64,000 nucleotides of DNA from NCBI GenBank assembly GCA_050742455.1, contig JBOGIG010000029.1:3455-67454 (forward strand). The letters are read 5' to 3'. The translations under genes and the position numbers were made by a program. Positions 23,400 through 47,986 of this stretch are shown in pieces. This stretch comes from Acidimicrobiales bacterium. Lineage in GTDB: Bacteria; Actinomycetota; Acidimicrobiia; Acidimicrobiales; JBOGIG01. The first letter of the stretch is position 1. Each line of letters starts with the position of its first letter. Under the pieces are notes generated by a model. The model searched no databases and was not told where the DNA came from. It saw nothing but the letters and a program-made list of their open reading frames with translations.

Positions 23400-25838
<2,439 letters not shown>

Positions 25839-26361: not shown

Positions 26362-27486
26362 GTGACCTTGAAACGACTGATCATCCTGGCAGTGACCGCT
26401 TCGGTGGCCCTGGCCGCCTGCTCGGCCGGCAGTCCCCAGGCCAACAACTCCCCTATCCCGGGGACCCCGGGGTCGAGCGGCACCGGCGCCATCGGCAACC
26501 CGGCCAAGCCAGTAACCCTCAACGAGTCAGGCTCATCTCTCCTCTATCCCTTCCTTCAAGAGTTGGTGGCGCCGCTGCACCAGAAGTACCCGAACATCAC
26601 CCTGGCGCCGGCGCCGGGTGGCTCGGGAAAGGGCATCAGCGACGCGATCAGCGGCACCGTCCAATTGGGTGGCTCTGACGCCTACCTGAGCCCAGGCCAG
26701 TTGGCCGCCAACAAGGGGCTACTCAACATCCCCATCGCCGTTTCGGCCCAGGCCATCAACTTCAACCTCGCCGGCATCACGAGCCTGAAACTCAGCGGCA
26801 ACATCCTGGCCCAGATGTACGAGGGCAAGATCACCAAGTGGAATGACCCGGCAATCTCCGCCCTGAACCCCGGAGTCACAATCCCGCCCACCCCCGTTGT
26901 CCCGGTGCGACGGGTGGACTCCTCGGGTGACACCTTCATCTTCACCAGCCTGCTGACCGCCACCAATCCGGCCTGGAACAACGGCCCGGCCTTTGGCACC
27001 ACCGTGACGTGGCCCCCGGTTCCTACAGAAGTGACGGCCAACGGCAACCCGGGCATGGTTCAGACTTGCAAAGCGACCCCCGGGTGCGTGGCATACGTGG
27101 GGGTCAGCTCGGAGTCAGCGGCACAGACGGCATCGCTGGGTGAGGCCATGCTGCAGAACAAGGCCGGGAACTTCGTCCTTCCCACCGCCGACACCATCAA
27201 CGCCGCGGTGAGCGCCGGTGCGGCCGGCGTGCCGGCCAGCCTGGCCGCTCCGCTGATTTACGAGAGCGGGTCCCAGTCCTACCCCATCGTCAACTTCGAG
27301 TACCTTGTGGTCAAATCCACCCAGCCCGACGCTCCCACCGCCCAGGCCATCCGCACCTTTTTGTCCTTTGCCATCGACCCCAACGGGGGCAGCACCCCGC
27401 AGTACCTGTCCAAGGAAGGATTCGTGGCCCTGCCCAGCTCGGTGGCATCCAAGGTGCAAAAGGCCATTGGCGCCATCTCGGGGTGA
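26362..27486 (+). CDS. pstS: Phosphate ABC transporter substrate-binding lipoprotein
   Basis: Lipobox LAACS. GSSLLYPFLQ...GGSGKGISD...GGSDAYLS is typical of PstS. Confidence 0.9.
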   Translation: MTLKRLIILAVTASVALAACSAGSPQANNSPIPGTPGSSGTGAIGNPAKPVTLNESGSSLLYPFLQELVAPLHQKYPNITLAPAPGGSGKGISDAISGTVQLGGSDAYLSPGQLAANKGLLNIPIAVSAQAINFNLAGITSLKLSGNILAQMYEGKITKWNDPAISALNPGVTIPPTPVVPVRRVDSSGDTFIFTSLLTATNPAWNNGPAFGTTVTWPPVPTEVTANGNPGMVQTCKATPGCVAYVGVSSESAAQTASLGEAMLQNKAGNFVLPTADTINAAVSAGAAGVPASLAAPLIYESGSQSYPIVNFEYLVVKSTQPDAPTAQAIRTFLSFAIDPNGGSTPQYLSKEGFVALPSSVASKVQKAIGAISG

Positions 27487-27527
27487 GCGACTACTGATGG
27501 TGATCGACAATTGATGGCGAGCGACTA

Positions 27528-28607
27528 ATGACCGTCGTCGGCGAACGTCGGAACCGTTCCCGGTCCGACCCCTCCTCAAGGGCCCGGGAACGTTCATCGG
27601 CTCGGGAGCGGCGCCGATCCGAGCTGACCGGTCCCGATCGGGCCCTGCGGGCGGTGCTGGCCTCGGCAGCCGTTGTTCCCGCCGCGGCCCTGGTCTTCCT
27701 GGCCTATGAGATGTTCAAGGCGGCCTATCCGGCCATCGTGTTCAACGGGTGGAGGTTCTTCACCACCAAGACCTTTACCCTGGGCAACCTGTACGGCGGG
27801 TCGCCCGAGATTCACCACGGATACGTAGCCGCCCACGGCGCCCACTACGGCGTGCTGGCCCTTCTGTTCGGCACCGTGGTGTCCTCGCTCATCGCCCTGG
27901 TGGTAGCCGTGCCTGTTGCAGTGGGAGGCGCCGTCCTGCTGGCCGAGCGGGTCCCGGCCCGCCTGCAGGGGCCGCTCGGTATCTTCTTGGAGCTGCTGGC
28001 CGGCATCCCCAGCGTCATCTTCGGGCTATGGGGCATTTACACCTTCGGGCCGTTCCTGTCCCGAACCGTATTCCGCTGGATCGCCGACCTGGGACTGCCC
28101 TGGCTGTCCGGACCCACCGGCGCCGGTCAGGGCCTTCTCACCGCCTCGTTGGTCCTGGCCGTGATGATCGTACCCATCATCGCCTCGATCACCCGAGAGC
28201 TCATCCGCTCGGTGCCGAGCCTGTCCAAGGAAGGGGCCGTGGCTCTGGGCCTGACCCGTTCGGAGACGGTCCGCGTGGTGACAATCCCGTTCGTGCGCAC
28301 CGGGATCATCGCCGCTTCCATCCTGGGTTGGGCTCGGGCCCTGGGCGAGACCATCGCCGTTCTCATCATCAGCGGCAATGCCTTGAACATCTACCCCCAC
28401 AGCATCTTCGCCCCGTTCTCGACCATGGCTTCCACCATCGCCGCCATCCTTGACGGTGCCCTGACCGACTCGACGCACATGGCCGTGCACGCCCTGGCCG
28501 AAGTCGGCCTGGTGCTGCTGATTGTCACCCTGCTGACCAACTTTGGCGGTCGCTTGCTCACCCGTCGGTTCTCTACCGCCGGCCTGCCCGTGGGACGGGG
28601 GGTCTAA
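27528..28607 (+). CDS. pstC: Phosphate ABC transporter permease PstC
   Basis: 359 aa with 6 TM helices and an EAA-like loop (ALGLTRSETVRVVTIPFVRTGI). Confidence 0.85.
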   Translation: MTVVGERRNRSRSDPSSRARERSSARERRRSELTGPDRALRAVLASAAVVPAAALVFLAYEMFKAAYPAIVFNGWRFFTTKTFTLGNLYGGSPEIHHGYVAAHGAHYGVLALLFGTVVSSLIALVVAVPVAVGGAVLLAERVPARLQGPLGIFLELLAGIPSVIFGLWGIYTFGPFLSRTVFRWIADLGLPWLSGPTGAGQGLLTASLVLAVMIVPIIASITRELIRSVPSLSKEGAVALGLTRSETVRVVTIPFVRTGIIAASILGWARALGETIAVLIISGNALNIYPHSIFAPFSTMASTIAAILDGALTDSTHMAVHALAEVGLVLLIVTLLTNFGGRLLTRRFSTAGLPVGRGV

Positions 28608-28612
28608 GGCGG

Positions 28613-29467
28613 ATGCCCAGAACCATGACCCGGCGGGGAATGCGGGATTTCACCTTCTGGGGGTTATGCACGCTCGCTTTCTTGTGCATCGCCGGGCCGG
28701 CCCTGGCCGTGCTCATCAGCGTGTTCCACCAGGCGCTCCCCTCCTTTGGCTGGTCTCTGTTCACGGCCAGGACCAATTCCGTCGGCATCCAGAATGCCAT
28801 CCTGGGCAGCCTGTTAATGCTGGTCGGCGTGTTGATTCTGGCTGGCACCATCGGGGTGAGCGCAGGCATCTATCTGTCCGAGTTCGCCACGGGTAGAACA
28901 CAGAGACTCCTTCGCTTTCTGTCCGAGGTCCTGGCCGGGACGCCCTCGATAGTGATCGGGTACATCGGCTACATCACCCTCGTGGTGCAGTTCCACTGGG
29001 GCTTTTCTCTCCTGGCTGCCGTCGTGGCCCTGTCGGTCCTGGTGCTGCCCTACGTGGTCAAGACGACCGAAGTGGCATTCCGCCAGGTGCCGACGGTCCT
29101 GCACGAAGCGGCCGCCGGCCTGGGCCTGCCTCGTTTCACCACGGTGCGCAAGATCCTCATGCCCGCCGCCCTGCCCGGGGTGGTATCCGGACTGATAGTG
29201 GCCCTGGCCATCTCAACAGGGGAGCTGGCCCCCCTCCTGTTCACGGCCGGTTTCAGCGATAAGAACCCCTCGCTTCAGCTCCTTCACCAACAGGTCCCCT
29301 ACCTGACCGACGTGACTTTCACCGACCTGTCCCTGCCAGGGGCAAGGGCCCACGCCACAGCGGCGGCAGCCGGGGCCGTCACCCTGGTCCTGCTCATCCT
29401 CCTCATCATCCTCGGACGCCTGGTGTCGAGGCGTTCCCGACGCAACACGCAAAGGATGGCACTTTGA
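28613..29467 (+). CDS. pstA: Phosphate ABC transporter permease PstA
   Basis: 284 aa, permease with [24 protein letters not shown]. Confidence 0.85.
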
Positions 29468-30408
29468 CCAAGCGAAACGGACCCGCCCTCGTCGCCCGCC
29501 CCGATACGATGCGGTGGCCGTTCCCCTCCCCAGCGCCGGAGAACCCGTATAACATGCCCGAAACCGTCTCCCCGACCATGACAGTCCACGAACCGCCAGA
29601 ACCTCAGACTCATTCCGCCGGCGGCACTGAGGTGCCCGACCCCATCTTCAGCGTGGAATCACTCTCCTTTTACTATGGGGGCGTACAGGCTCTAAACGAC
29701 ATCAGCCTGACCATTGGCAAGAACGAGGTGACGGCCCTCATCGGACCCTCCGGCTGCGGCAAGACAACCTTCATCCGCTGCCTCAACCGACTCAACGACC
29801 TGATTCCTGGAACTCGGGTGGAGGGCCGCATCGACTTCGAGGGCCAGTCCCTCTACGGCCCTGGAGTACGGGCCATCGAAGTGCGGCGCCGGATCGGCAT
29901 GGTATTCCAAAAACCCAATCCTTTCCCCCGATCCATATACGACAACATCGCCATCGCCCCCCGGATCAATGGCATCAAGGTCGACATGGACGACCTGGTC
30001 GAGGAGAGCTTGACCCGGGCAGCCTTGTGGGACGAAGTCAAGGACAAGCTGCGGGACACGGCCTTCAGCCTGTCCGGAGGCCAGCAGCAGCGGCTTTGCA
30101 TCGCCCGAGCCATCGCCGTGCGCCCGGAGGTGATCCTCATGGACGAGCCCTGCTCGTCTCTCGATCCGGTGGCCACCTTCCGTATCGAGGAGCTCATGTC
30201 GGACCTGAAGACCGACTACACCATCGTGGTGGTGACCCACAACATGCAACAGGCTGCCCGGGTCTCGGATCGGACTGCTTTTTTTACGGTGGATGTGTCG
30301 GACGGTGGCCGCACCGGCGTCATGGTCGAGATGGGGCTGACACCCCAGATCTTCACTGCCCCGACGGACCAGCGCACAGAGGACTACATCACCGGCCGCT
30401 TCGGATAG
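29464..30408 (+). CDS. pstB: Phosphate ABC transporter ATP-binding protein PstB
   Basis: [34 protein letters not shown]. The N-terminal extension suggests the true start may be ATG 29554 or 29578. Confidence 0.9.
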
Positions 30409-30428: not shown

Positions 30429-30725
30429 CTACCCGCCGGCCATGGCCCCCAGGATCACGAACTGCTCACCCCCGGAAACCACCGCCTCGGGCAGGGCGGC
30501 GTCGGGTAGTTCATGGGACAGGTCCTCCTCGCAGGCAAAGAACCGGACGAAGGGGCGGCGCTGCTGGTTGACCTGGTCTCGGATGGTCCCTTTGAGCATG
30601 GGGTAGCGATCCTCCAAGGCGCCGAGAACGGAGCGCTGGGTGGCGGCGCCCACGACTTCGAGCTGCACCTCGCCTTTGATGTTGGCCAACAGGCGAAGAT
30701 GGGCCGGCAGAACCACCCGGATCAT
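30429..30725 (-). CDS. MoaD/ThiS-family ubiquitin-like beta-grasp protein ending in Gly-Gly
   Basis: This is the C-terminal 98 aa of track ORF 30429..31100, starting [13 protein letters not shown]... and ending ...[10 protein letters not shown]-stop. Its ATG overlaps the stop of the upstream gene (ATGA). Confidence 0.7.
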
Positions 30726-31837
30726 GGCAGGGTCTGGACCTCCACCGACAGAACGGCGGGCAGATCTCGGACTATGGGCTCCCAGCTGTCCCCGGAGTCG
30801 GCCGACGCATAGACCTGTCCACCGGTGGTGCCGAAGTACACCCCACACGAATCCAGGCTGTCGATGGCCATGGAGTCCCGCAGCACGTTGACATAGCAAT
30901 CCCGCTGAGGCAGACCTTTCCCGAGCGGCTCCCACTCTTCCCCACCGCTGCGGCTGCGATAGACCCGCAGGCATCCGTCCGGCGGGTAGTGCTCCGAGTC
31001 GCTCTTGATGGGCACGACATAAATCGTCTCGGGTTCGTGGGCATGCACGTCGACGACGAATCCGAAGTCGCTGGGCAAGTTGCCACTGATCTCTCGCCAT
31101 GTTTCGCCGCCGTTGTCGCTGCGCATGACGTCCCAGTGCTTCTGCATGAACACGACATCGGGACGACTGGGGTGGGCGGCGAGGCGGTGAACGCAGTGTC
31201 CCACCTCGGCTGTGGGCTCAGGGATGTTTTCGGATCGCAGGCCAACATTGGCCGGTCGCCAGGTCAGCCCGGCATCGTCGGAGCGAAACACCCCCGCAGC
31301 CGAGATAGCCACCAGGATGCGATTGGAATCGTCCCGATCCAACAGGATGGTGTGCAGGCACATACCCCCGGCCCCGGGCTGCCACGACGGCCCCGAGGCG
31401 TGGCCCCGTAGGCCGGACAGCTCTTCCCACTGCCCACCTCCATCGGTTGAGCGGAACAGGGCGGCATCCTCGACCCCGGCGTAGACCGTGTCGGGATCGA
31501 GGGGCGAAGGTTCAAGATGCCATACCCGGGCGAACTCCCACGGATGGGGCGTGCCATCGTAGAACTGGTGGGTACCGGGCACGCCGTCGTAACGGAACTC
31601 GTTGCCCACTGGGCGCCACGTGACCCCGCCGTCGTCGGACCTCTGGATCACTTGCCCGAACCAGCCCGTGGACTGCGAGGCATAAAGGCGGTCAGGCTCG
31701 ACCGGGGATCCCTTGAGGTGGTAAATCTCCCACCCGCCGAAGTGAGGTCCGTTGATATCCCACTTCTGACGCTTGGCGTCCGAGGAGAGGATGAACGCTC
31801 CCTTGCGGGTGCCGACCAACACCCTTACTCCGCTCAT
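30722..31837 (-). CDS. BNR/Asp-box repeat beta-propeller protein (annotated in databases as sialidase/glycosyl-hydrolase-like; function unknown)
   Basis: Six S-x-D-x-G-x-x-W-type boxes: [54 protein letters not shown]. No signal peptide is evident. Confidence 0.75.
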
Positions 31838-31894
31838 TCGGTGCCCCCCTGGCTCGGCTGGTAGTGGCCATACCGTATCGCGGAGCCCGAGAGC

Positions 31895-32263
31895 TCAGGG
31901 CTCGATCAGGCCGGGCTCTCCCTGGTCGTTGAGCACCGCCAGGCCATGAGTGAACCAGGCCAACATGCCACCGTCCAGATTGCGGGCATCTATGCCACGG
32001 GGACGCAGGGCCTCGACCACCCGGGACGATCGGCCGCCCCGATGGCATACACATATGACCATTCGATCGGCCGGAAGTGCGTCGAGTTGGTCCAGAATCC
32101 CGCCCATGGGAATGTGGACAGCCCCGGGGGCATGGCCCAGGGCCCATTCGTCATCCTCTCGCACGTCAACCAGCACCGCTCCGGCGCTGATTAGATCATG
32201 GGCCTCAAGCGGTCCCACGCCCGCTCCCGGCTCAGGAGTTGGGGTCATCATCGCCGGCCACAT
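31895..32263 (-). CDS. Single-domain rhodanese-like sulfurtransferase
   Basis: VLVDVREDDEWALGHAPGAVHIP...VICVCHRGGRSSRV, with the active-site loop C-H-R-G-G-R-S. Confidence 0.8.
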   Translation of the reverse strand: MWPAMMTPTPEPGAGVGPLEAHDLISAGAVLVDVREDDEWALGHAPGAVHIPMGGILDQLDALPADRMVICVCHRGGRSSRVVEALRPRGIDARNLDGGMLAWFTHGLAVLNDQGEPGLIEP

Positions 32264-32362: not shown

Positions 32363-32587
32363 ATGTTCGACAAGTTCGATCAAATCGTGCGCTGCCGGGA
32401 TGGCCACCTGTTCACCACCATCTGGATCCCCCTGGCCTCATTCAAGGCCGTTCGCCTGGGCTCGAAGAGATGGCAGCACTGCCCGGTGGGCCGGCATTGG
32501 GTGACGGTCGAAATGGTTGACGAGAACAGCTTGAGCCCGAGCGATCTGAGCCAGGCCCGATCGGTCCACGACATCCGTATCCCCTGA
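32363..32587 (+). CDS. Small conserved hypothetical protein with possible Cys/His metal site
   Basis: 74 aa: MFDKFDQIVRCRDGHLFTTIWIP...WQHCPVGRHWVTV. The paired C-x3-H / C-x4-H elements give it the character of a real gene, but the family is unassigned. Confidence 0.45.
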   Translation: MFDKFDQIVRCRDGHLFTTIWIPLASFKAVRLGSKRWQHCPVGRHWVTVEMVDENSLSPSDLSQARSVHDIRIP

Positions 32588-33412: not shown

Positions 33413-34825
33413 TCAGGCCGGGGCCGGAGTGCGCAACACGCCCTCGGCCCGAGCCGCAGCTCCGACGGCCTTGGCCACGTTCTTGACCACGTCCTTGTTG
33501 AAGACGGACGGAACTATGTAGCTGGGCGATAGCTCCGACTCGGGTACAGTGGCGGCGATGGCCTCGGCGGCCGCCAGCTTCATCGACTCGGTGATGGAGT
33601 GCGATCCGACATCCAACGCCCCCCGGAAGATGCCGGGGAAGCACAAGACGTTGTTGATCTGATTGGGGTAGTCGCTGCGCCCGGTGGCGATCACCGCCGC
33701 AATCCCGTCCGCCTCTTCGGGCGTGACCTCGGGGTCGGGATTGGCCAGGGCGAAGACTATGGGGTCCTTACCCATGCGGCGTAGGTCGTCGTGTGACACC
33801 AGACCGGGTCCGCTTACTCCGATGAACAGGTCGGCTCCCGGCATTACCTGAGAGATAGAGCCCTGGCGCTTGTCCGGGTTGGTATTGAGAGCCATCCACG
33901 CCTTGGCTCCATCCAGGCCGGGGCGCCCTTCATAGATCGCCCCCTGGCGGTCCACTCCTACGATGTGGGTGACTCCGGCCTCGGAGAGGATCTTCGTGAT
34001 GGCGATGCCGGCCGCTCCCACCCCGGCAATGACAACCGACAGATCCTGCATCTTCTTGTCCACAACTTTGAGTGCATTGTTGAGGGCAGCCAGAACCACG
34101 ACCGCCGTACCGTGCTGGTCATCGTGAAAAACCGGTATGTCCAGGCTGGCCTTTAGGGCATCCTCGACCTCAAAGCACCGGGGGGCCGCCACATCCTCCA
34201 GGTTGATGCCACCGAACACAGGCTCGAGACGTTCGACCGTCTCGATCAACTCGGCCGCCGAGGTCACGTTCAGGCAAACGGGGAAAGCATCGATGCCGGC
34301 GAACTCCTTGAACAGCATGGCCTTCCCCTCCATCACCGGCAGGGAGGCGTAGGGCCCGATATCACCCAGGCCCAAAACGGCGGTCCCGTCGGTCACGATG
34401 GCCACCGAGTTCGCCTTGATCGTGTATTTGTGGGCCTCGGAGGGGTCCTTCGAAATGGCATTGCACACCCGGGCCACCCCCGGTGTGTAGGCCATGGACA
34501 GGTCGTCTCGGGTGGTAAGGGGGGACTTGGAGGTCACCTCGATCTTGCCCCCCAGGTGCATGCGGAACGTTCGGTCCAGGACCGACACGACCTCTATGCC
34601 GCTCAAGGCCGTTATGGCGTCCTTTATGCGGGTCACGTGGTCGGTGCCACTGGCAAGTACGGTGACGTCGCGGACCATCCGGGGACCGGCGATCTCGACG
34701 ATGTCCAAACCGAGGATATTGCCCCCGGCCCCGCCTATGGCGGTGGTAAGTCGGGCGAGCGTTCCTGGTTGGTTTTCCAGTTGCACCCTGATGGCTACCG
34801 AGTAAGAGGCATTGGGAGTTGGCAT
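33413..34825 (-). CDS. NAD(P)-dependent malic enzyme with N-terminal ACT domain
   Basis: I used the internal ATG at 34825, because the track start 34972 would overlap bldC. ACT-like IRVQLENQPGTLARLTTAIGGAGGNILGLDIV, then LSMAYTPGVARVC and GVGAAGIA. Confidence 0.85.
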   Translation of the reverse strand: MPTPNASYSVAIRVQLENQPGTLARLTTAIGGAGGNILGLDIVEIAGPRMVRDVTVLASGTDHVTRIKDAITALSGIEVVSVLDRTFRMHLGGKIEVTSKSPLTTRDDLSMAYTPGVARVCNAISKDPSEAHKYTIKANSVAIVTDGTAVLGLGDIGPYASLPVMEGKAMLFKEFAGIDAFPVCLNVTSAAELIETVERLEPVFGGINLEDVAAPRCFEVEDALKASLDIPVFHDDQHGTAVVVLAALNNALKVVDKKMQDLSVVIAGVGAAGIAITKILSEAGVTHIVGVDRQGAIYEGRPGLDGAKAWMALNTNPDKRQGSISQVMPGADLFIGVSGPGLVSHDDLRRMGKDPIVFALANPDPEVTPEEADGIAAVIATGRSDYPNQINNVLCFPGIFRGALDVGSHSITESMKLAAAEAIAATVPESELSPSYIVPSVFNKDVVKNVAKAVGAAARAEGVLRTPAPA

Positions 34826-34901
34826 CAGACCTGCAACGGTACTTGTGCTCGGCCCTGCCCTACCACACGGGGAGAGGTTCGGGCTTCCACACGGGGGAGG
34901 T

Positions 34902-35114
34902 TCAGGCCTCGCTGTAGCTGGCATCCTCGAGGCACTGGCGGATCTCCGATGCCCGGAAACGACGGTGGCCACCCAGAGTCCGCACCGCGGTGAGCTTGCC
35001 GGAACGGGCCCAACGGGTCACGGTCTTGGGGTTGACCCGGAATAGAGCCGCAACTTCCGCCGGAGTCAAGAGTGGATCTGGAACGGTTTGATCGGGCACG
35101 GGTTTCCTTTGCAT
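34902..35114 (-). CDS. bldC: BldC-family (MerR/excisionase-like) small DNA-binding protein
   Basis: LLTPAEVAALFRVNPKTVTRWARSGKLTAVRTLGGHRRFRASEI is near-identical in pattern to Streptomyces BldC, as I recall it. Confidence 0.8.
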   Translation of the reverse strand: MQRKPVPDQTVPDPLLTPAEVAALFRVNPKTVTRWARSGKLTAVRTLGGHRRFRASEIRQCLEDASYSEA

Positions 35115-35225
35115 TGTTCGGTCCGTTTAGTACCTTTTATGCTAAGAGGAAACGGGCAAACAGTCCATAGGTCGAACGGCCTATAATTCGGTCGTATTTA
35201 CCCTAAATGACTAGCCACCTTGTAG

Positions 35226-36371
35226 CTAAATATGACTAGCCCTCGCCAATATCATCCGGGCCTGTCCGGTTCCGGCCACCAACCGACCTACGACCGTGGC
35301 CTGGATCCCCGACAGGGCCAGCACATCGATGGCCACCTGCTGCTCTCCGTCAGGTAAGGCCATCACCATCCCCAAACCCAGGTTGAAGACCTTTTCCATC
35401 TCCGACGGTTCAATGTCTCCATGGCGTTGAATCTCGTCGAATATGGCAGGCACGGGCCACATGCCCTTGTGGATCTCGGCGTCGCAATTCGTCGGAAGGA
35501 TACGGGCCAGATTGGCGCAGATTCCTCCGCCGGTTATGTGGGCGATACCTCCTATCTCAACCTGACCAGAGTTGAGCAAACCAAGCACCGCGGGGGCATA
35601 GATGACCGAAGGCTCCAACAATTCGTCGGCCAGGCTGCGGTCCGCCCCGGCCCAGGCCGGTCCATCCAGAGCCAGTCCCCCCACGTCAAGGAGGGCCCGG
35701 CGGGCCAGCGAATAGCCGTTGGAACGCAAGCCGGGCGACCCCAGCCCCACCAGCACGTGACCCGGCCGCAACTTCGACCCGGTGATGACCGCGTCCTCTT
35801 CGACCACCCCGACGGCAAAACCCACCAGGTCGAACTGACCCGGCTCCATGACGCCGGGATGCTCGGCCATCTCGCCACCGATGAGAGAGCACCCGGCCAA
35901 GCGACAGCCCCGGGCCACCCCACCGACCAACTCGACCATCTCGGCCGGGCTCACCTTGCCCGTGGCCACGTAGTCCAGGAAGAAGAGGGGCTCAGCTCCC
36001 AGGCAGACCAGATCGTCAACGCACATGGCCACCAGGTCGATACCGATGGTATCGAGGCGTCCGGTCTGCTGCGCCACCACGGCTTTAGTCCCCACCCCGT
36101 CGGTGCCCGCCACCAGCACGGGACGTTGCCACCGGCCCGAAGCCAGACTGAACAGGCCACCGAAGCCTCCGATGTCGCCTCGTACCTCGGGCCGGAAAGT
36201 GGAAGCCACCAGGTCGGAGATGGCTCGCACGGCAGCCTCGCCTCCTTCGATGTCCACTCCGGCCCGGGCGTAGGTGAGCGGGCCGGTCGGTGACGTTTTG
36301 CCCGAGGCCGACCCGGACAGCCGAACAGGGCCTGAGTCCCGCTCAGGGCCTGCATGACTGCCCTCAGGCAC
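35226..36371 (-). CDS. purM: Phosphoribosylformylglycinamidine cyclo-ligase (AIR synthetase)
   Basis: YARAGVDIEGGEAAVRAI...GGFGGLF...DGVGTK. Confidence 0.9.
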   Translation of the reverse strand: MPEGSHAGPERDSGPVRLSGSASGKTSPTGPLTYARAGVDIEGGEAAVRAISDLVASTFRPEVRGDIGGFGGLFSLASGRWQRPVLVAGTDGVGTKAVVAQQTGRLDTIGIDLVAMCVDDLVCLGAEPLFFLDYVATGKVSPAEMVELVGGVARGCRLAGCSLIGGEMAEHPGVMEPGQFDLVGFAVGVVEEDAVITGSKLRPGHVLVGLGSPGLRSNGYSLARRALLDVGGLALDGPAWAGADRSLADELLEPSVIYAPAVLGLLNSGQVEIGGIAHITGGGICANLARILPTNCDAEIHKGMWPVPAIFDEIQRHGDIEPSEMEKVFNLGLGMVMALPDGEQQVAIDVLALSGIQATVVGRLVAGTGQARMILARASHI

Positions 36372-37824
36372 CCCGGGGGACTTCTTCCAGGCTGGATTTG
36401 GTCCAGGTCACCGGGACCTCCACCGGATAGTTGCCAGTAAGGCAGGCGCTGCAGAACCCACCCCCGGGAACACCAATGGCCTCGACGAGGTTCTCCAAAC
36501 TCAAAAAGGCCATCGAGTCGACCCCCAGGTAGGTCCGCATCTCGTCAAGGGTCATGTTGGCCGCCAGAAGCTCGGAGCGACTTCCCGTGTCGATGCCATA
36601 GAAGCAGGGCCAGGAATAGGGCGGTGACGACACCCTGAGATGTACTTCGGCGGCGCCGGCCTCCCGAAGCATCTTGGTAATGGCCCGCTGGGTCGTTCCC
36701 CGCACTATGGAATCGTCCACCACCACTACCCGGCGACCGGCAATGTTCTCCCTGAGCGGGTTGAGCTTGCGCCGCACTCCCCGGGCCCTGGCTTCCTGGC
36801 TGGGAGCGATGAAGGTACGTCCGATGTAGCGGTTCTTCACCAGGCCCTGGCCGTAGGGGATGCCGCTGGCCCGGGCGTAGCCTTCGGCAGCCGGCACCCC
36901 CGAATCGGGAACGCCCATGACGAGGTCGGCTTCTACCGGCGCCGTGGCGGCCAACAGCTCACCCATGCGCCGGCGGGCCCCGTGCACCTCCTGGCCATAA
37001 AGCCGGCTATCGGGGCGGGCAAAGTACACGAACTCAAAGATGCACAGCCGGGGATCCACCGCCCCGGGAGGGAAAGGCATGACCGATCGGGGCCCGTCGG
37101 CGTCGATGACGACCATTTCGCCCGGATCCAATTCCCGTACAAACTCGGCCCCGATCACGTCCAGGGCCGGGGTCTCGGATGCCAGCACCCACCCTTTGGT
37201 TGGGAGTCGGCCCAGGCACAACGGACGGAACCCATTGGGATCGCGCACCCCGATGAGCCGGTCGGCGTCCATGAGGACCAGGGAGAACGCTCCGGCCAGG
37301 CGGGGAAGGACCGTCACCAGTGCGGTCTCCAGGCCGCCCTGGTCCTCGCCGGGGAACGCCCTTGACACCATCTCGGCCACCAGATCGCTGTCGCTCGCCA
37401 CCGTGCCGGGGAGCATGCCCTCGTCAGCGGCCAGCTTGGCCGTATTGGTCAGGTTCCCGTTGTGACCCAAGGCGAATCCGGCGTCGCCCGCAGCTCGAAA
37501 TACCGGCTGGGCATTGCGCCAAGTGCTCGATCCCGTGGTCGAATACCGGGTGTGGCCGATGGCCAGGTAACCGTCCAGGCCGGACAGGGTCCTCTCGTCG
37601 AAGACATTGGTGACTAGGCCCATGTCTTTGACCACGGTGATGGTATCGCCGTCGCTAACGGCCATGCCCGCCGATTCCTGGCCCCGGTGTTGCAAGGAAA
37701 AAAGACCGTCGAAAGTGAGCTGAGCTACTGGCTCGCCCGCGGCCCGAACCCCAAATACGCCACACGCCTCTTTAGGGTGATCGTCCAGCTCGCTGCTCAA
37801 GCCGAAGGGCCGTTGGCCGGTCAC
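36364..37824 (-). CDS. purF: Amidophosphoribosyltransferase
   Basis: N-terminal nucleophile CGVFGV, PRPP loop VVVVDDSIVRGTT, and a C-terminal Cys cluster. Confidence 0.9.
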   Translation of the reverse strand: MTGQRPFGLSSELDDHPKEACGVFGVRAAGEPVAQLTFDGLFSLQHRGQESAGMAVSDGDTITVVKDMGLVTNVFDERTLSGLDGYLAIGHTRYSTTGSSTWRNAQPVFRAAGDAGFALGHNGNLTNTAKLAADEGMLPGTVASDSDLVAEMVSRAFPGEDQGGLETALVTVLPRLAGAFSLVLMDADRLIGVRDPNGFRPLCLGRLPTKGWVLASETPALDVIGAEFVRELDPGEMVVIDADGPRSVMPFPPGAVDPRLCIFEFVYFARPDSRLYGQEVHGARRRMGELLAATAPVEADLVMGVPDSGVPAAEGYARASGIPYGQGLVKNRYIGRTFIAPSQEARARGVRRKLNPLRENIAGRRVVVVDDSIVRGTTQRAITKMLREAGAAEVHLRVSSPPYSWPCFYGIDTGSRSELLAANMTLDEMRTYLGVDSMAFLSLENLVEAIGVPGGGFCSACLTGNYPVEVPVTWTKSSLEEVPRGA

Positions 37825-37960
37825 GCCTTCAAGTCTCCCACACCACCCCCTACGCTAGGCCAACCGCCCAGGCAAACCGGCATGAACCGAGACCCGGGGG
37901 AGGAGATCGCCCCGCCGGCTCAGAACTCGGGCGCCACGGCCATGCCTTAGCCTGGGCCTG

Positions 37961-38821
37961 GTGATCGACCTGCACACCCATTCAACCTGCTCGGACGGAT
38001 CCGAGACCCCCGAGAGGGTGGCCGAGCTGGCCCACGAGGCCGGGTGCCACGCCTTCGCCTTGACCGATCACGACACCACCGAGGGCCTGGGTCGGGCGGC
38101 CCGCCGGGCTGCAAAGCTGGGAGTCGAATTCGTCCCCGGTTGCGAGATCTCCTGTGAGTTCTCGCCGGGGAGCCTGCACGTGCTGGTTTATTTCGTGGCC
38201 GACGGTCACGGGCCGCTGGCCGACGAACTGGTCCGCCTACGCCAGGACCGTCTGGCGAGAAACCGTCAACTCGTGGCCCGCCTGTCGGGTCCTTCGGTGG
38301 GACTTGACATCACCGAGGACGATCTCGCCGCCGAGGCCGGCGGTGACCTGTCCCGGGCCGGCCGTCCCCACGTGGCCACCATCCTGATGCGGCGAGGGGT
38401 GGTGAAATCAATCCAGGAGGCGTTTGACACCCTGTTGTCCAAGGGTAGAGCCGGCTATGTGGGCAAGGGACGACTGGGGCCGGCCCAGGTGGCCGATCTG
38501 GCCCGCCAGTCCGGGGGCCTCGCCGTGCTGGCCCATCCCCTCAGCCTCGGGCTGGATCCGCCCTCGCTGGCGAGCGCGGTGGCGGAGCTGGCCTCGATGG
38601 GATTCGCCGGGATAGAAGCCACCTACGGCCGCTACTCCACCACCGAGCGGGCGGGGCTGGCCGATCTGGCCGCTCGCAACAACCTCGTCGCTACCGGAGG
38701 ATCCGACTTCCACGGGCAAGTCAAGCCGGACCTGGCCGTCGGTGCGGGCCGGGGTGACCTGGCCGTACCGACGGAGGCGCTGGTCGCCCTAAAAAGGCTA
38801 TTGGAGAGGCGACCCGGCTAG
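37961..38821 (+). CDS. PHP-domain metal-dependent phosphoesterase (TrpH/YciV-like)
   Basis: IDLHTHSTCSDGS...ALTDHDT...AHP...GGSDFHG. Confidence 0.8.
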   Translation: MIDLHTHSTCSDGSETPERVAELAHEAGCHAFALTDHDTTEGLGRAARRAAKLGVEFVPGCEISCEFSPGSLHVLVYFVADGHGPLADELVRLRQDRLARNRQLVARLSGPSVGLDITEDDLAAEAGGDLSRAGRPHVATILMRRGVVKSIQEAFDTLLSKGRAGYVGKGRLGPAQVADLARQSGGLAVLAHPLSLGLDPPSLASAVAELASMGFAGIEATYGRYSTTERAGLADLAARNNLVATGGSDFHGQVKPDLAVGAGRGDLAVPTEALVALKRLLERRPG

Positions 38822-41139
38822 TCCCCGGCGGGAGTCAGAGCGCAGCGCCATGCCTCTCGGGCCTGTTCCATGGCCAGATCCAACAGGCCATCGATCACCA
38901 ACCGGTCGCCACCGGCACGCCCGAGCTCTCGCCAACCCAGCCCGGCCCCCTCCACTGCCGCCCGGAGTGTCTCCACCTCGTCGTCGGCCACACAGATGAC
39001 CACCCTGGAAGGCGCCTCGTTGAACAGGTCGCCATGACCCCTGACACCCGAAACGTGAAATCCGACTTGGGACCGGACCGCCATCTCGGCCAGGGCCAGA
39101 CCCAAACCGCCATCCGAGATGTCATGAATGCCGCCCAGGGATGGGGCGCCGTGCGGGAACCGAGAACCTCCGAGCGGTGGGACGCCGTCTTGGGTCTGGG
39201 GGTCAGACGCAACCTGGGCCGCGACCAATCCGGCCACGAACTGGATCAGGGTCGCGTGAACCACCAGGTCAACCTGGAGCAGCCGACCGCCCCGGTGGCT
39301 CCGCTGTCCGACGGCCCAGCGCGACCCGGCCAGGTTGGGGGGGCCGTGGGTGGCACCCACCATGACCAGGCGCTGGCCATCGACCAGGCCCACTCCCGGT
39401 GGGCGACGGCTTAGATCGGCGATCAGACCTACCGTCCCGATCACCGGGGTGGGGTGGATGTCGACCCCGCCGCTCTCGTTGTAGAAGCTCACGTTGCCCC
39501 CCACCACGGGCAGGCCCAGGCCGACACAGGCCTCGGCCATGCCGTCGATCGACTCCGACAGTTGCCACATCACCTCGGGGTGTTCGGGGTTACCAAAGTT
39601 CAGGCAATTGACCACTGCTGCCGGCGTGGCCCCGGCACAGGCAACGTTGAGTGCTGACTCGGCCACCAGCATCGCCGTTCCACGTCGTGGATCGTTGGAG
39701 CACCACGCCGAGTTGCCGTCGGTGGACAGGGCCAGCCCCTTTCCCGTGTCGGGCAGGCCGGGGGCCGCCAGGCGGATCACCGCGGCGTCCCCACCGGGAC
39801 CCTCGACGGTATTGAGGAACAGCTGATGGTCGTACTGGCGGAAGATCCACGACGGGTCCACCAGCATGGCCAGGACATCGGCGCCACAGTCGAGTGGTGC
39901 GGCCAGGTCGCTTGGGTCGTTCGACCAGCGAGCTTCCTGGTCGGGCGGGGGCGCCATCGGCCGGTGGTAGACCGGGCCGTCGTCGGCCAGCGATGGGGCC
40001 GGTACGTCGGCCAGGACATCACCGTCCCAGTCCGACAGCACCCGTAGACGCCCGGGGCCGTCGGCCGCAGCGGTCACCCGGCCCACAACCGCGGCATTGA
40101 TCTCCCATCGGCCACAAATCTCTTTCACCCGGTCGAGTGAGGCAGGCTCGACGATGGCCAGCATCCTTTCCTGGCTCTCCGACGTCATCACCTCGAAAGC
40201 CTCCATGCCCTCTTCCCGGCGGGGCACGGCGGCCAGGTTCACATCCATTCCCACCCCACCGCGCGATGCCGTCTCGGAAGTGGCGCAGGTCAGGCCCGCT
40301 CCCCCCAGGTCTTGAACGCCCACCACCAAACCGGTGTCTAGGAGCTCCAGGCAGGCCTCGATCAGGCGCTTTTCCTCGAACGGGTCCCCAACCTGGACGC
40401 TGGGACGCTTCGAGGTGTCGTCACTGAACCCAGCCGAGGCCAGGACGCTGACTCCTCCGATGCCGTCGCGCCCGGTGGCCGACCCCAGCAGCACGGCCAG
40501 GTTGCCCGGCCCGCTGGCCCGGGCCAGAACCAGGCGGGAAGTAGGCATGACGCCCAGGCATAGGACATTGACCAAGGGGTTGGCGGAATAGCACAGGTCG
40601 AACTCGATCTCGCCCCCCAGCGTGGGCACCCCCACCGAGTTCCCGTAGCCGGAGATACCCGATACCACCCCCTCCAACATCCAGCGGGACCGGGGATCGT
40701 CGGGGGGCCCGAAGCGAAGGGGGTCCATGATGGCTATGGGGCGGGCACCCATGGTGAAGATGTCCCTCAGGATCCCGCCCACGCCGGTGGCCGCCCCCTG
40801 GTAGGGCTCCAAGGCGGAAGGGTGGTTGTGACTCTCGATTCGAAGGGCCACCGCCACCCCTTCCCCGGCATCGATGACCCCGGCGTTCTCGCCCGGACCG
40901 ACCAGAACACCTGGACCCGAGGTGGGCAAGCGCTTCAGATGAACCCTGGATGATTTGTAGGAGCAGTGCTCGCTCCACATCACGGCATACATGGCCAACT
41001 CCAAGTGGTTGGGTCGGCGCCCCAGGATGTCCTCAATCCGCTCGGCTTCGGCGTCCGACAGCCCCAGCATGAGATGGATGGACTCGCCCATTCCCCCCAC
41101 CGTAATCGAGCCCACCACCAGGTTCGGATTGCTCCCCAT
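38818..41139 (-). CDS. purL: Phosphoribosylformylglycinamidine synthase subunit PurL
   Basis: LGLSDAEAERIEDILGRRPNHLELAMYAVMWSEHCSYKSS... I chose the start at internal ATG 41139; 41091 and 41223 are also in frame. Confidence 0.9.
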   Translation of the reverse strand: MGSNPNLVVGSITVGGMGESIHLMLGLSDAEAERIEDILGRRPNHLELAMYAVMWSEHCSYKSSRVHLKRLPTSGPGVLVGPGENAGVIDAGEGVAVALRIESHNHPSALEPYQGAATGVGGILRDIFTMGARPIAIMDPLRFGPPDDPRSRWMLEGVVSGISGYGNSVGVPTLGGEIEFDLCYSANPLVNVLCLGVMPTSRLVLARASGPGNLAVLLGSATGRDGIGGVSVLASAGFSDDTSKRPSVQVGDPFEEKRLIEACLELLDTGLVVGVQDLGGAGLTCATSETASRGGVGMDVNLAAVPRREEGMEAFEVMTSESQERMLAIVEPASLDRVKEICGRWEINAAVVGRVTAAADGPGRLRVLSDWDGDVLADVPAPSLADDGPVYHRPMAPPPDQEARWSNDPSDLAAPLDCGADVLAMLVDPSWIFRQYDHQLFLNTVEGPGGDAAVIRLAAPGLPDTGKGLALSTDGNSAWCSNDPRRGTAMLVAESALNVACAGATPAAVVNCLNFGNPEHPEVMWQLSESIDGMAEACVGLGLPVVGGNVSFYNESGGVDIHPTPVIGTVGLIADLSRRPPGVGLVDGQRLVMVGATHGPPNLAGSRWAVGQRSHRGGRLLQVDLVVHATLIQFVAGLVAAQVASDPQTQDGVPPLGGSRFPHGAPSLGGIHDISDGGLGLALAEMAVRSQVGFHVSGVRGHGDLFNEAPSRVVICVADDEVETLRAAVEGAGLGWRELGRAGGDRLVIDGLLDLAMEQAREAWRCALTPAGD

Positions 41140-41222
41140 CGTTGGACGGTGGGGTTGATTCGACAGCAAAGATACGAAATACTTATCAAATGCCACGATC
41201 ATCCAAGGCAGATAAAGTCTCA

Positions 41223-41618
41223 ATGACGATCCAGCACAAAGAAGCTCTGGCCGTCGGTCGAGAGCAAAGTCGTGCCGTTCGCCGCTACCTGGAAGCGCTG
41301 GAACAGAACCGGCCCAAACGGGGGAGAAAGCGCACGACGGAGTCGGTGGAGCGTCAGCTTCGAACCGTGGTGGAGAGCCTCAAATCTGCGGAACCTCTTC
41401 GTCGACTCAACCTCCTGCAAAAGAAACGGGACCTCGAAGCAGAGCTGGGCCATACGGAAGAAGGCGTCGACATAGTGGCCCTGGAAAGGGACTTCGTGGC
41501 CGCCGCCGCCGCCTATGGCGCCCGCAAGGGGATCAGCTATGCCTCCTGGCGGGAGGTAGGGGTTGACTCGACCGTCCTGCGACGGGCCGGCATCGCCCGC
41601 ACCAGGACTTTGAAGTAG
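41223..41618 (+). CDS. Lys/Arg-rich hypothetical protein (131 aa)
   Basis: The internal ATG of ORF 41142..41618 gives MTIQHKEALAVGREQSRAVRRYLEALEQNRPKRGRKR..., with coiled-coil character. Its last 82 nt overlap the purQ 3' end on the other strand, so coding status is uncertain. Confidence 0.35.
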   Translation: MTIQHKEALAVGREQSRAVRRYLEALEQNRPKRGRKRTTESVERQLRTVVESLKSAEPLRRLNLLQKKRDLEAELGHTEEGVDIVALERDFVAAAAAYGARKGISYASWREVGVDSTVLRRAGIARTRTLK

Positions 41619-42262
41619 CTCTCCAAGACGAGGGCGCCATCGGCGCCGCCGAGTAGGGCCGACCAACTACGCTCAGGATGGGGCATTATCCCCGTCACAT
41701 TTCCCTCGGCGTTGCAAACGCCGGCGATGTCCCCCATCGAGCCGTTGGGATTGTCGACGTAGCGCAGAACCACCCGATCGTCGGCCTCCAATTCATCCAA
41801 GGTTCGACGGTCACATGTGTAGTTACCTTCAAAATGGTTGATAGCCAATTTGATCCTCTGGCCCGGGACAAGACTCGATGTCAATGCGCTGATCCTGGAG
41901 GCAACCGTCAAATCCACCTCGTCACATATGAATCGCAATCCGCGGTTCTTCTGCAGGGCGCCGGGAAGTAGTCCGGCTTCGGTGAGAATCTGAAAGCCGT
42001 TGCAAATACCCAAAACTTGTCCCCCGGCGGCGGCAAAGTCGTTCACCGCTCCCATCACCGGGGAGAATCGGGCAATGGCGCCGGGGCGAAGGTAGTCCCC
42101 GTGGGCGAAGCCTCCGGGAAGGATGACGGCGTCATAGTCACTGAGGTCGGTATGGCGATGCCAGATGATGGTGGCCGAGGCGCCCAACCCGGTCACAGCG
42201 GCGATTACGTCGTGCTCGCAGTTCGATCCGGGAAACTGAACGACGCCGATGTGGACAGTCAC
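41537..42262 (-). CDS. purQ: Phosphoribosylformylglycinamidine synthase glutaminase subunit PurQ
   Basis: GVVQFPGSNCEHD, GICNGFQIL, MPHPER. A non-conserved-looking C-terminal tail of about 20 aa is present. Confidence 0.9.
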   Translation of the reverse strand: MTVHIGVVQFPGSNCEHDVIAAVTGLGASATIIWHRHTDLSDYDAVILPGGFAHGDYLRPGAIARFSPVMGAVNDFAAAGGQVLGICNGFQILTEAGLLPGALQKNRGLRFICDEVDLTVASRISALTSSLVPGQRIKLAINHFEGNYTCDRRTLDELEADDRVVLRYVDNPNGSMGDIAGVCNAEGNVTGIMPHPERSWSALLGGADGALVLESYFKVLVRAMPARRRTVESTPTSRQEA

Positions 42263-42281
42263 AGTCGGATCCGCACTCCCG

Positions 42282-42323
42282 GGACACCCGGGACACCCGA
42301 GACACCCGAGACACCCGAGGACA
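42282..42323. repeat. Tandem repeat, 9 bp x about 4.5 (GGACACCCG x2, AGACACCCG x2, partial)
   Basis: Read directly. It lies in the 76-nt gap between the purS stop and the purQ start. Confidence 0.9.
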
Positions 42324-42338
42324 GCAGGGGGACGATTT

Positions 42339-42593
42339 TCACATGACCGTGATGATGTTCACGTGACTGTCCTCGATGACGGGATTGGTCAGAAAACGAT
42401 CGCACATGGCGGCCACCTCGGATTCGGCCGCCTGGGTACTTGGGGCTTCCAGTTCGAAACGGATAGCCTTGCCCACCCGAACGGACTGGACACCCTCGAA
42501 TCCGAGTGCGGGCAATGACTTTTGCACCGTGGCCCCGGCCGGGTCGGCCACTCCGGACCGCAGTTGCACTTCGACCAACACGGAGAATCTCAT
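42339..42593 (-). CDS. purS: Phosphoribosylformylglycinamidine synthase subunit PurS
   Basis: 84 aa: VEVQLRSGVADPAGATVQKSLPALGF...FLTNPVIE. Confidence 0.85.
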   Translation of the reverse strand: MRFSVLVEVQLRSGVADPAGATVQKSLPALGFEGVQSVRVGKAIRFELEAPSTQAAESEVAAMCDRFLTNPVIEDSHVNIITVM

Positions 42594-42597
42594 CAGG

Positions 42598-43506
42598 TCA
42601 GGCGCCCCACCACTGGGTCAGAGCCAATCCGGATAGGCGTTCGTAGGCCTGCACGTAGCGGTCACTGGTGGCCTGGACCACCTCGGAGGGAAGGGTGGGA
42701 GGGGGCGGTACCTTGTTCCAACCGGTCGATTCAAGCCAGTCCCGTACCGGCTGCTTGTCGAATGAGGGACAGGTCCGGCCCGGGACGTAGGAGTCGGCCG
42801 GCCAGAACCGGGATGAGTCCGGTGTCAATAACTCGTCGCACAGGGCCAGCTCACCGTCGATCAGGCCCAGCTCGAATTTCGTGTCAGCCATGATGATCCC
42901 CTGGTCGGCCGCCCTCTGCGCTCCGCGCTCGTAGGCGGCCAGGCAAATCTGGCGGGCCCGATCGGCCAATGGCCCACCCACCAGGGCCACGGCCTGGTCG
43001 TAGTCGATGTTCTCGTCATGGCCGGACTCGGCCTTGGTGGACGGGGTGAACATGGGTTCGGGCAAGCGGTCCGATTCCACCAGACCTGAGGGGGCGGCCA
43101 TGGAATGAATCGTTCCCGACTGCTGATATTCCTTCCAGGCCGACCCAGATAGGTACCCCCGCACGATGCACTCGATGGGCAACATCTTGGCCCGGCGCAC
43201 CACCATGGCCCGGCCGGAGGCACCGGCCGGCGCATCGGAGGGGAAGGCGGCCGGGTCGGTGTCCACCAGGTGGTTGGGGGCGATATCGGAAAGCTCGGAG
43301 AACCAATAAGTCGACAGGGCGGTAAGGACCCGCCCCTTGTGCAATATGGGTTCGTCTAACACCACGTCGAAAGCCGACAAGCGGTCGCTGGCCACCATGA
43401 ACAACCGTTCGTCGCCGAGGTCGTAGATGTCGCGGACCTTGCCCGAATAGATCAATTCCAACCGATTACTCCAATTCATCCAAGGCGTCGATGACGCGAC
43501 CGGCAT
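42598..43506 (-). CDS. purC: SAICAR synthetase
   Basis: LIYSGKVRDIYDLGDERLFMVASDRLSAFDVVL. The start may be the internal ATG at 43479. Confidence 0.9.
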   Translation of the reverse strand: MPVASSTPWMNWSNRLELIYSGKVRDIYDLGDERLFMVASDRLSAFDVVLDEPILHKGRVLTALSTYWFSELSDIAPNHLVDTDPAAFPSDAPAGASGRAMVVRRAKMLPIECIVRGYLSGSAWKEYQQSGTIHSMAAPSGLVESDRLPEPMFTPSTKAESGHDENIDYDQAVALVGGPLADRARQICLAAYERGAQRAADQGIIMADTKFELGLIDGELALCDELLTPDSSRFWPADSYVPGRTCPSFDKQPVRDWLESTGWNKVPPPPTLPSEVVQATSDRYVQAYERLSGLALTQWWGA

Positions 43507-44770: not shown

Positions 44771-45217
44771 CTATCGGGCCCCCGCAGCGCGGAACTCGTC
44801 GAGTCGCTTGGACATGGCCTCGTCGGCGATGGAGACCATCTCGACCACCAGTACGGCGGCATTGGCCGCGCCGTCGATGGCCACGGTGGCCACCGGGATT
44901 CCCCTGGGCATCTGAACGGTGGCGTAAAGGGCGTCCACCCCACCCAGGGCCCCACCCGACAAAGGAACTCCGACCACGGGGAGGGTGGTGTGGGCGGCCA
45001 CCACGCCGGCCAGATGGGCAGCCATGCCCGCCCCACAAATGATGGCCGAGTAGCCATTCGACCGGGCCTCCCGCGCGAAGACGGCAACCTGATCTGGATT
45101 GCGATGAGCCGACATGACGCGTTCGTCGGGTTCGATGCCGAACCGGGTCAGCATCTCGCCGGCCGGAGCCATCTTGTCGTGATCACGGGGCGAACCCATG
45201 ACAATCGCCACTTTCAC
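44771..45217 (-). CDS. purE: N5-carboxyaminoimidazole ribonucleotide mutase
   Basis: KVAIVMGSPRDHDKM...VMSAHRNPD...AGMAAHLAGVVAA. Confidence 0.85.
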   Translation of the reverse strand: MKVAIVMGSPRDHDKMAPAGEMLTRFGIEPDERVMSAHRNPDQVAVFAREARSNGYSAIICGAGMAAHLAGVVAAHTTLPVVGVPLSGGALGGVDALYATVQMPRGIPVATVAIDGAANAAVLVVEMVSIADEAMSKRLDEFRAAGAR

Positions 45218-45239
45218 TGCCCGCTTGCTCCTTTTGTAA

Positions 45240-47986
<2,747 letters not shown>

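Follow-up and report, generated by a model that had tools for sequence, protein, structure and literature searches.

We analysed a 64,000-nucleotide stretch of DNA from an Acidimicrobiales bacterium (a metagenome-assembled genome; GenBank assembly GCA_050742455.1, contig JBOGIG010000029.1, positions 3,455 to 67,454; hereafter the window) and found that two of its genes, encoding a 371-aa Asp-box propeller (30722–31837, minus strand) and a 98-aa protein with a Gly-Gly (GG) C-terminus (30429–30725, minus strand), are the large and small subunit of a pair conserved in bacteria and archaea. The conserved unit is these two genes. A rhodanese gene directly upstream (122 aa, 31895–32263, minus strand), which an original prediction made from the sequence of the window had counted as the third member of an operon, is excluded from it. 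It is very probable that the propeller and the GG protein function together physically, and what is new here is the class of partner with which a MoaD/ThiS-type carrier is combined. By analogy with known carrier systems, we put at roughly 40% the probability that the pair is a two-subunit enzyme resembling MoaD-MoaE, served in trans by an E1 and passing sulfur to a small-molecule substrate.

When species-representative genomes were scanned with the propeller, at least 595 confirmed relatives were found. Neighbourhood statistics were taken from the best-scoring 80 loci per scan, and a second set of 90 loci from more distant relatives brought the total to about 170. The 80 genome loci came from at least 12 phyla, with Actinomycetota, Acidobacteriota, Gemmatimonadota, Chloroflexota, Burkholderiales, Planctomycetota, Verrucomicrobiota, Methylomirabilota, Eremiobacterota and Binatia among the groups represented, and their propellers were approximately 371 aa long and 76–82% identical to the window protein. 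The small protein was encoded directly downstream of the propeller at 79 of these loci; at the 80th, the contig ended at the last codons of the propeller gene. As the original prediction had reported, in the window the start codon of the small-protein gene overlaps the TGA stop of the propeller gene by 4 nt (ATGA, 30722–30725, minus strand), implying translational coupling, and the identical overlap was present at no fewer than 56 of the 76 complete loci. The A-M-A-G-G tail of the small protein (30432–30446, minus strand) read exactly A-x-A-G-G in 71 of 76 complete orthologues, and both terminal glycines (G97 and G98) were invariant in alignment A1. The adjacency of the propeller and the GG protein is far beyond chance.

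The pairing extended to much more distant relatives. In a metagenomic sister subfamily, about 45% identical to the window propeller and scanned with a query alignment of 7 sequences, a carrier was encoded downstream at 57 of the 67 loci with enough flanking sequence; 35 of these carriers ended in GG, 17 (of 55) had 1–8 residues past the GG, and 3 were longer fusions. At 30–35% identity, the gene order was reversed in Proteobacteria: Pseudomonas aeruginosa, Ralstonia solanacearum, Mitsuaria, Cupriavidus metallidurans and Burkholderia cenocepacia each carried an 89-aa gene ending in QALSGG directly upstream of an ‘exo-alpha-sialidase’. This 89-aa gene was named MoaD/ThiS where the record was annotated, and the C. 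metallidurans copy passed the Pfam ThiS model. An Arthrobacter relative had a Pfam-positive ThiS gene downstream of its propeller, and in Thermoplasmatota archaea ThiS preceded the propeller, also with a 4-nt overlap. The Thermoplasmatota carriers had 2- and 17-residue extensions past the GG, which, like those in the sister subfamily, resemble precursor-type carriers. The two proteins also occurred as single ThiS-linker-propeller polypeptides in four clusters (P0301, P0391, P0392 and P0393; 434–467 aa), and at L180:379–1749, with the GG internal and followed by a linker of approximately 9 residues and then the propeller; the nearest unfused relatives of these proteins were in Thermoplasmatota and other Euryarchaeota. 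Since there are four clusters with 69–76% mutual identity, the fusion has been maintained by evolution and is not an assembly error. At two loci, the carrier reading frame ran through into an AAA+ ATPase (585 aa in total, L037:7110–8867) or a YjbR domain (228 aa, L010:1200–1886), representing either a real fusion or a lost stop codon.

The rhodanese did not share this conservation. The original prediction had proposed looking for a conserved neighbourhood of propeller, MoaD-like protein and rhodanese; the first two are kept together across phyla and domains, and the third is not. Within the window, its description of three co-directional minus-strand genes is correct, and the single-domain rhodanese does have an intact CHRGGRS active-site loop (starting at C73; 32027–32047, minus strand) and a strong Pfam match (PF00581, E = 7.4 × 10−17, 62.1 bits against a cut-off of 22.2). 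The best NCBIfam matches were the rhodanese domains of MoeB/MoeZ. The rhodanese stop is separated from the propeller start by 57 nt rather than 58 (31838–31894, minus strand), a spacer that contains a Shine-Dalgarno-like AGGGGGG; no promoter- or terminator-like site was seen in it by consensus scan, which tells little in a high-GC genome. Co-directional genes, a short gap with no terminator-like site, an intact active-site loop closest to MoeZ/MoeB rhodanese domains, and a distant locus with a rhodanese domain (within MoeZ) behind the pair would all suit a dedicated three-component sulfur-transfer operon. That explanation is nonetheless very unlikely, as tblastn and phmmer searches found this rhodanese at none of the 80 genome loci, none of the 90 distant loci and none of the closest Acidimicrobiales loci. 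Absence from about 170 other loci rules it out as a conserved member of the module. The window rhodanese is a lineage-specific neighbour, at most locally recruited, which may act as a persulfide donor for the pair in this genome.

The small protein is supported as a carrier of the CysO/MoaD/ThiS type by predicted fold and profile comparison, in line with what the original prediction had read from its sequence. Its AlphaFold2 model was a beta-grasp (predicted local distance difference test score, pLDDT, 82) in which residues 96–98 were disordered, and the top Foldseek matches of this model were CysO (3dwg_C and 4n6e_B), SAMP1 (3po0), MOCS2A/MoaD and Urm1, with template-modelling (TM) scores of 0.6–0.73. 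It aligned end to end with the Pfam-positive ThiS partner from Arthrobacter (hhalign probability 94.5%, E = 8 × 10−8), the partners of related propellers passed the ThiS model PF02597 with 27.4, 48.2 and 36.8 bits, and NCBI names the small protein a MoaD/ThiS family protein. By its model and sequence, the small protein has the beta-grasp fold of some 65–100 residues and the flexible GG tail of the MoaD/ThiS/CysO family, but it falls short of the curated family thresholds; the NCBIfam SAMP1 model, for instance, gave a sub-threshold 16.5 bits against a cut-off of 60. With 47 invariant columns among 43 sequences, the small protein is unusually conserved for the MoaD/ThiS family, which points to extensive protein contacts.

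The propeller is a member of the seven-bladed Asp-box family that the crystal structure 3b7f represents (Reut_B4987/YP_299179.1, ‘putative glycosyl hydrolase with BNR repeats’). It matched 3b7f_A over its full length (residues 4–366, phmmer E = 3.3 × 10−69) at approximately 35–45% identity, the profile comparison with the 3b7f family gave E = 1.6 × 10−118, and its AlphaFold2 model (predicted TM score 0.85) retrieved 3b7f in Foldseek at TM 0.86–0.87. Among the matches listed were over 8000 clusters of homologues (clustered at 90% identity), which were 77–83% identical across phyla. Where six S-x-D-x-G-x-x-W boxes had been predicted, five are canonical: SDDGGVTW (residues 67–74, 31616–31639; also a Pfam BNR match), STDGGGQW (130–137, 31427–31450), SDDAGLTW (186–193, 31259–31282), SDNGGETW (240–247, 31097–31120) and SADSGDSW (345–352, 30782–30805), all on the minus strand. 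The remaining one, fifth in order, is the variant SRSGGEEW (295–302, 30932–30955, minus strand), and a further, degenerate box (S18..D20..W26) marks a seventh blade, the number also found in 3b7f.

Such propellers are commonly annotated as exo-alpha-sialidases or as ‘glycosyl hydrolase, BNR repeat’, and weak, Asp-box-based matches to GH74 and sialidases were also seen in our searches, so that one might take the propeller for a sialidase or GH74-type glycosidase and the small gene for an unrelated neighbour. We consider this exceedingly improbable, and the label ‘sialidase’ is almost certainly wrong. GH33 sialidases have six blades and the window protein seven; its Pfam BNR_2 score was 19.8 bits against a cut-off of 31.4, and the RIP motif, part of the RIP/Arg-triad catalytic set of sialidases, does not occur in it. 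GH74 enzymes require two tandem propellers (approximately 700 aa or more) against the single one here, and the GH74 matches spanned Asp-box stretches only, with a target-normalised TM of approximately 0.33. The protein has no signal peptide and is cytoplasmic, no carbohydrate-utilisation context surrounds it, and the GG protein stays beside it, or fused to it, in bacteria and archaea alike. The original prediction had named, as grounds for abandoning its idea, a glycosidase site in the propeller together with orthologous small proteins lacking a free GG; the failed GH33 and GH74 comparisons and the 71 of 76 orthologues ending in A-x-A-G-G point the other way. Two NCBIfam leads, ‘rhoda_near_glyco’ and ‘F510_1955 glycosylhydrolase’, were discarded, both matches being far under their cut-offs and F510_1955 being an Anoxybacillus lipoprotein. 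A 2009 survey of Asp-box proteins also lists the 3b7f family as functionally uncharacterised, with seven blades, an atypical closure and, in 3b7f, an open tunnel of 9 × 11 Å (PMC2716378).

We compared the window propeller with 73 gap-free full-length homologues. Mean amino-acid identity was 0.79, whereas identity at fourfold-degenerate third positions was 0.39 against 0.35 expected from composition, so these sites are essentially saturated. Saturated synonymous sites combined with approximately 80% amino-acid identity indicate long-term purifying selection and rule out recent horizontal transfer as the source of that identity. Thus, the propeller is unusually constrained for a protein without a known function. 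Across 42 family members at 30–83% identity, a polar core was conserved, comprising T10, K12, H146, H162, C215, H217, Q232, H234, R239, H265, R320 and D326, with C215 replaced by Asp in the proteobacterial clade; residues 213–217 (G-H-C-V-H, 31187–31201, minus strand) lie within it. H162, H217, H222, H234 and H265 are shared between the window propeller and 3b7f. Unlike 3b7f, the window clade has additional invariant His and Cys residues (H40, H90, H98, H107, C160, H214, H267, H283, C314 and C331). The polar core appears to surround the mouth of the tunnel, carried by the innermost strands and the loops of the top face; this is the usual location of the active site in propeller enzymes. Taken together, the constraint, the core invariant over this range of identity and the open tunnel of 3b7f make the propeller look like an enzyme.

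From the pair, its neighbours and these models we infer the following scheme. Translational coupling would produce propeller and carrier in a 1:1 ratio, and the two would form a complex. A housekeeping E1 of the MoeZ/MoeB type, encoded elsewhere, would adenylate the carrier's flexible A-x-A-G-G tail and turn its C-terminus into a thiocarboxylate, with sulfur drawn from a rhodanese persulfide, a step for which the adjacent rhodanese was perhaps recruited in this genome. The tail would then be offered to a pocket of conserved His/Cys/Arg/Lys/Asp residues, probably metal-binding, where the central tunnel of the propeller opens on the top face, and the sulfur would be transferred there to a small-molecule substrate. 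Such an arrangement would parallel MoaD-MoaE, ThiS-ThiG and CysO-CysM, although the catalytic fold would be entirely unlike theirs.

These three systems and the pair have in common a GG-ending beta-grasp carrier encoded beside its partner, overlapping it by 4 nt in many cases and occasionally fused to it; the E1 is often elsewhere, and the flexible tail is expected in the active site of the partner. MoaD-MoaE genes commonly overlap. MoaX of Mycobacterium tuberculosis, a fused MoaD-MoaE, is cleaved after the GG to become active, so the ThiS-propeller fusions are compatible with a synthase. The closest structural matches of the carrier are CysO, SAMP1 and MoaD. Unlike MoaE, ThiG and the pyridoxal phosphate-dependent CysM, however, the partner here is a seven-bladed Asp-box propeller with no similarity to any of them, and the window carrier, unlike MoaD, ThiS and CysO, is too divergent to score with Pfam ThiS. 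Resemblance was also seen to carriers linked to JAMM proteases (CysO/Mec+, QbsE/QbsD, HcyS/HcyD) and to archaeal SAMPs, through the CysO/SAMP1-like fold and through the post-GG extensions of some members, which imply processing; unlike in JAMM-linked systems, the neighbourhood has no JAMM, no synthase of a known type and, with one exception, no E1.

That exception is a metagenomic locus (L093:1898–4469) in which three translationally coupled genes encode the propeller, the ubiquitin-like (Ubl) carrier and a 383-aa MoeZ-type protein combining ThiF and rhodanese domains, the last gene overlapping that of the carrier by 4 nt. It is the best indirect support for the proposed sulfur-carrier chemistry, which we regard as plausible. 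The window rhodanese points the same way, but such cases are rare.

Several observations weigh against the sulfur-transfer enzyme. L093 is the only one of about 170 loci at which an E1 adjoins the pair, a JAMM protease adjoins it at none, and all-versus-all clustering of neighbouring open reading frames (ORFs) in the two locus sets revealed no conserved third gene; the thiocarboxylate step thus rests on analogy. The small protein had no Pfam match at E ≤ 0.1, and so no PF02597 score, and the A1 profile had no meaningful match among PDB sequences. The placement of the polar core was derived from the strand order of the AlphaFold2 model, not from coordinates. A partner was missing at 10 of the 67 sister-subfamily loci, and propeller relatives in Streptomyces and two Rhodobacterales were partner-less and nevertheless kept the polar core. 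In Nonomuraea gerenzanensis (L091:6084–6395), the beta-grasp-like downstream partner ended in ...VLPALA and lacked the GG, the only such case seen, and the DNA past its stop codon did not point to a simple loss of GG by truncation. A substrate cannot be proposed at present. Finally, the nearest single-propeller structural neighbours after 3b7f (Ycf48, DAIP and sortilin; Foldseek TM 0.3–0.6) are binders, not enzymes.

Some of these same observations would fit a non-catalytic role, in which the beta-grasp protein is a ligand, a regulator or a chaperone of a propeller that serves as scaffold or sensor, with the tail or a surface seated in the tunnel and no sulfur chemistry. The structural neighbours bind at or in a propeller of the same type, Ycf48 taking the D1 peptide and sortilin, through its Vps10 domain, C-terminal peptides; the partner without GG, the partner-less subfamilies and the near-constant lack of an adjacent E1 are all in keeping with it. 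So is P0259 (704 aa), in which a 3b7f-family propeller and an N-terminal Ser/Thr protein kinase domain form one polypeptide, an architecture that looks sensor-like and suggests that the propeller can serve as a sensing or binding module in some proteins. However, pure binding does not explain why the GG is found in 71 of 76 orthologues and, one clade excepted, retained throughout, nor does it sit easily with a His/Cys/Arg/Lys/Asp constellation invariant down to 30% identity, with approximately 80% identity over saturated synonymous sites, which is typical of enzymes or multi-contact machines, or with the MoeZ-type E1 at L093. In contrast to the window propeller, Ycf48, DAIP and sortilin are also extracytoplasmic or lumenal and have neither the His/Cys/Arg core nor a beta-grasp partner. 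On balance, we regard a purely binding role as unlikely.

The residues beyond the GG raise another alternative, a hydrolase role for the propeller at the C-terminus of the carrier; it would be a counterpart of the JAMM proteases Mec+ and QbsD that trims past the GG or releases adducts. Residues to be trimmed are present in 17 of 55 sister-subfamily carriers, in the archaeal partners and in the four fusion clusters, where the linker and propeller follow the GG; a JAMM protease is never nearby, and His, Cys and Asp abound in the core. Yet it is in the window clade that the propeller is most constrained, and there the GG is already terminal in 71 of 76 carriers, leaving nothing to trim. The release of adducts would still require a further synthase, and neither Pfam nor NCBIfam gave a hydrolase signature. 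Trimming or release by the propeller is a distinctly doubtful reading of the pair.

The sulfur-transferring two-subunit enzyme is the reading that we prefer. In more general terms, and at less than even odds, propellers of the 3b7f family may be an unrecognised class of enzymes acting on the activated C-terminus of a dedicated Ubl carrier; in the boldest form of this idea, the propeller would be a metal-dependent, thiocarboxylate-using sulfur insertase that makes a sulfur-containing metabolite or cofactor. To our knowledge, thiocarboxylate carriers feed only a few enzymes, namely MoaE, ThiG, synthases of the CysM/MetY type, BexX, tRNA thiolases and siderophore enzymes, and the propeller, if the reading holds, would add a partner of an entirely different fold. 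The product of such an insertase would be shared widely among soil bacteria from at least 12 phyla and by archaea of the Thermoplasmatota. The propeller is in any case very widespread in Bacteria and Archaea, ranks with the most constrained proteins of these genomes and now carries the mistaken label of sialidase. The crystal structure 3b7f has been available since 2007 without a function, and the gene pair offers a concrete, testable handle on it, with family members in the tractable P. aeruginosa, R. solanacearum, C. metallidurans and B. cenocepacia. The original prediction had supposed the pairing of propeller and GG carrier to be undescribed, and we found no description of it in the searchable full-text literature, which leaves out most subscription journals, so that a prior mention is possible; no BNR or propeller partner is mentioned in the beta-grasp surveys of Iyer 2006 and Burroughs 2007.

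Genes other than the pair recurred at a minority of loci. In the 80 genome loci, the minor neighbours were YCII/DGPF (11 loci), an ECF42-type sigma factor (DUF6596 plus TPR; 8), HxlR regulators (8; directly upstream of the cassette and co-directional) and VOC/glyoxalase (5), at loci that included L011, L019, L032, L059, L069, L079 and L080. The P. aeruginosa pair (L084), which adjoins pmpM, was likewise surrounded by YciI, an ECF sigma factor, VOC and a thioredoxin, and the recurrence of YCII, ECF sigma and VOC neighbours may hint at stress regulation. As a conserved third gene, YCII, ECF42-type sigma, HxlR, VOC, Zn-ADH, TauE, IlvD and EamA were each ruled out, none exceeding 14% of loci. With no such gene among 170 loci, the neighbourhoods do not resemble Ubl-conjugation or defence systems (E1-E2-JAB operons; Bil/CBASS-type), and no PADLOC defence model matched. 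TauE/SafE permeases were found upstream of the cassette at three loci (L031, L051 and L076), and ilvD adjoined the propeller at 7 sister-subfamily loci, including L162. On a plasmid of Rhodobacter sp. CZR27 (L086, 2589–6116), a partner-less propeller adjoined ilvD and was divergent from egtB-egtD, which serve ergothioneine synthesis.

The surroundings of the cassette in the window did not recur at other loci. A pstSCAB-like phosphate transporter set, assigned from ORF translations only, is convergent onto it (26362–30408, plus strand), and on its upstream side (33413–47848, minus strand) are a HAD hydrolase, an ACT-domain malic enzyme and then purine-biosynthesis genes, the first three of which have Pfam support as PurM-like (AIR-synthase-type), PurF-like (amidophosphoribosyltransferase-type) and PurL-like (FGAR-amidotransferase-type). 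The usual sulfur-carrier partners had been predicted to be missing nearby, and this held: Pfam found no ThiF, MoaE, ThiG, CysM or JAMM among the larger ORFs of 19.0–41.2 kb (approximately 10 kb on each side), and a MoeB probe and a Mec/JAMM probe had no match in the six-frame translation of the whole window. Divergent from the rhodanese gene and 100 nt from it is a putative 74-aa ORF (32363–32587, plus strand) with C-x(n)-H ... C-P-x-G-x-H-W motifs and no family match. Further away, a 455-aa protein (24471–25838, plus strand) has as its sole Pfam match a C-terminal CysS_C anticodon-binding domain of 50 residues.

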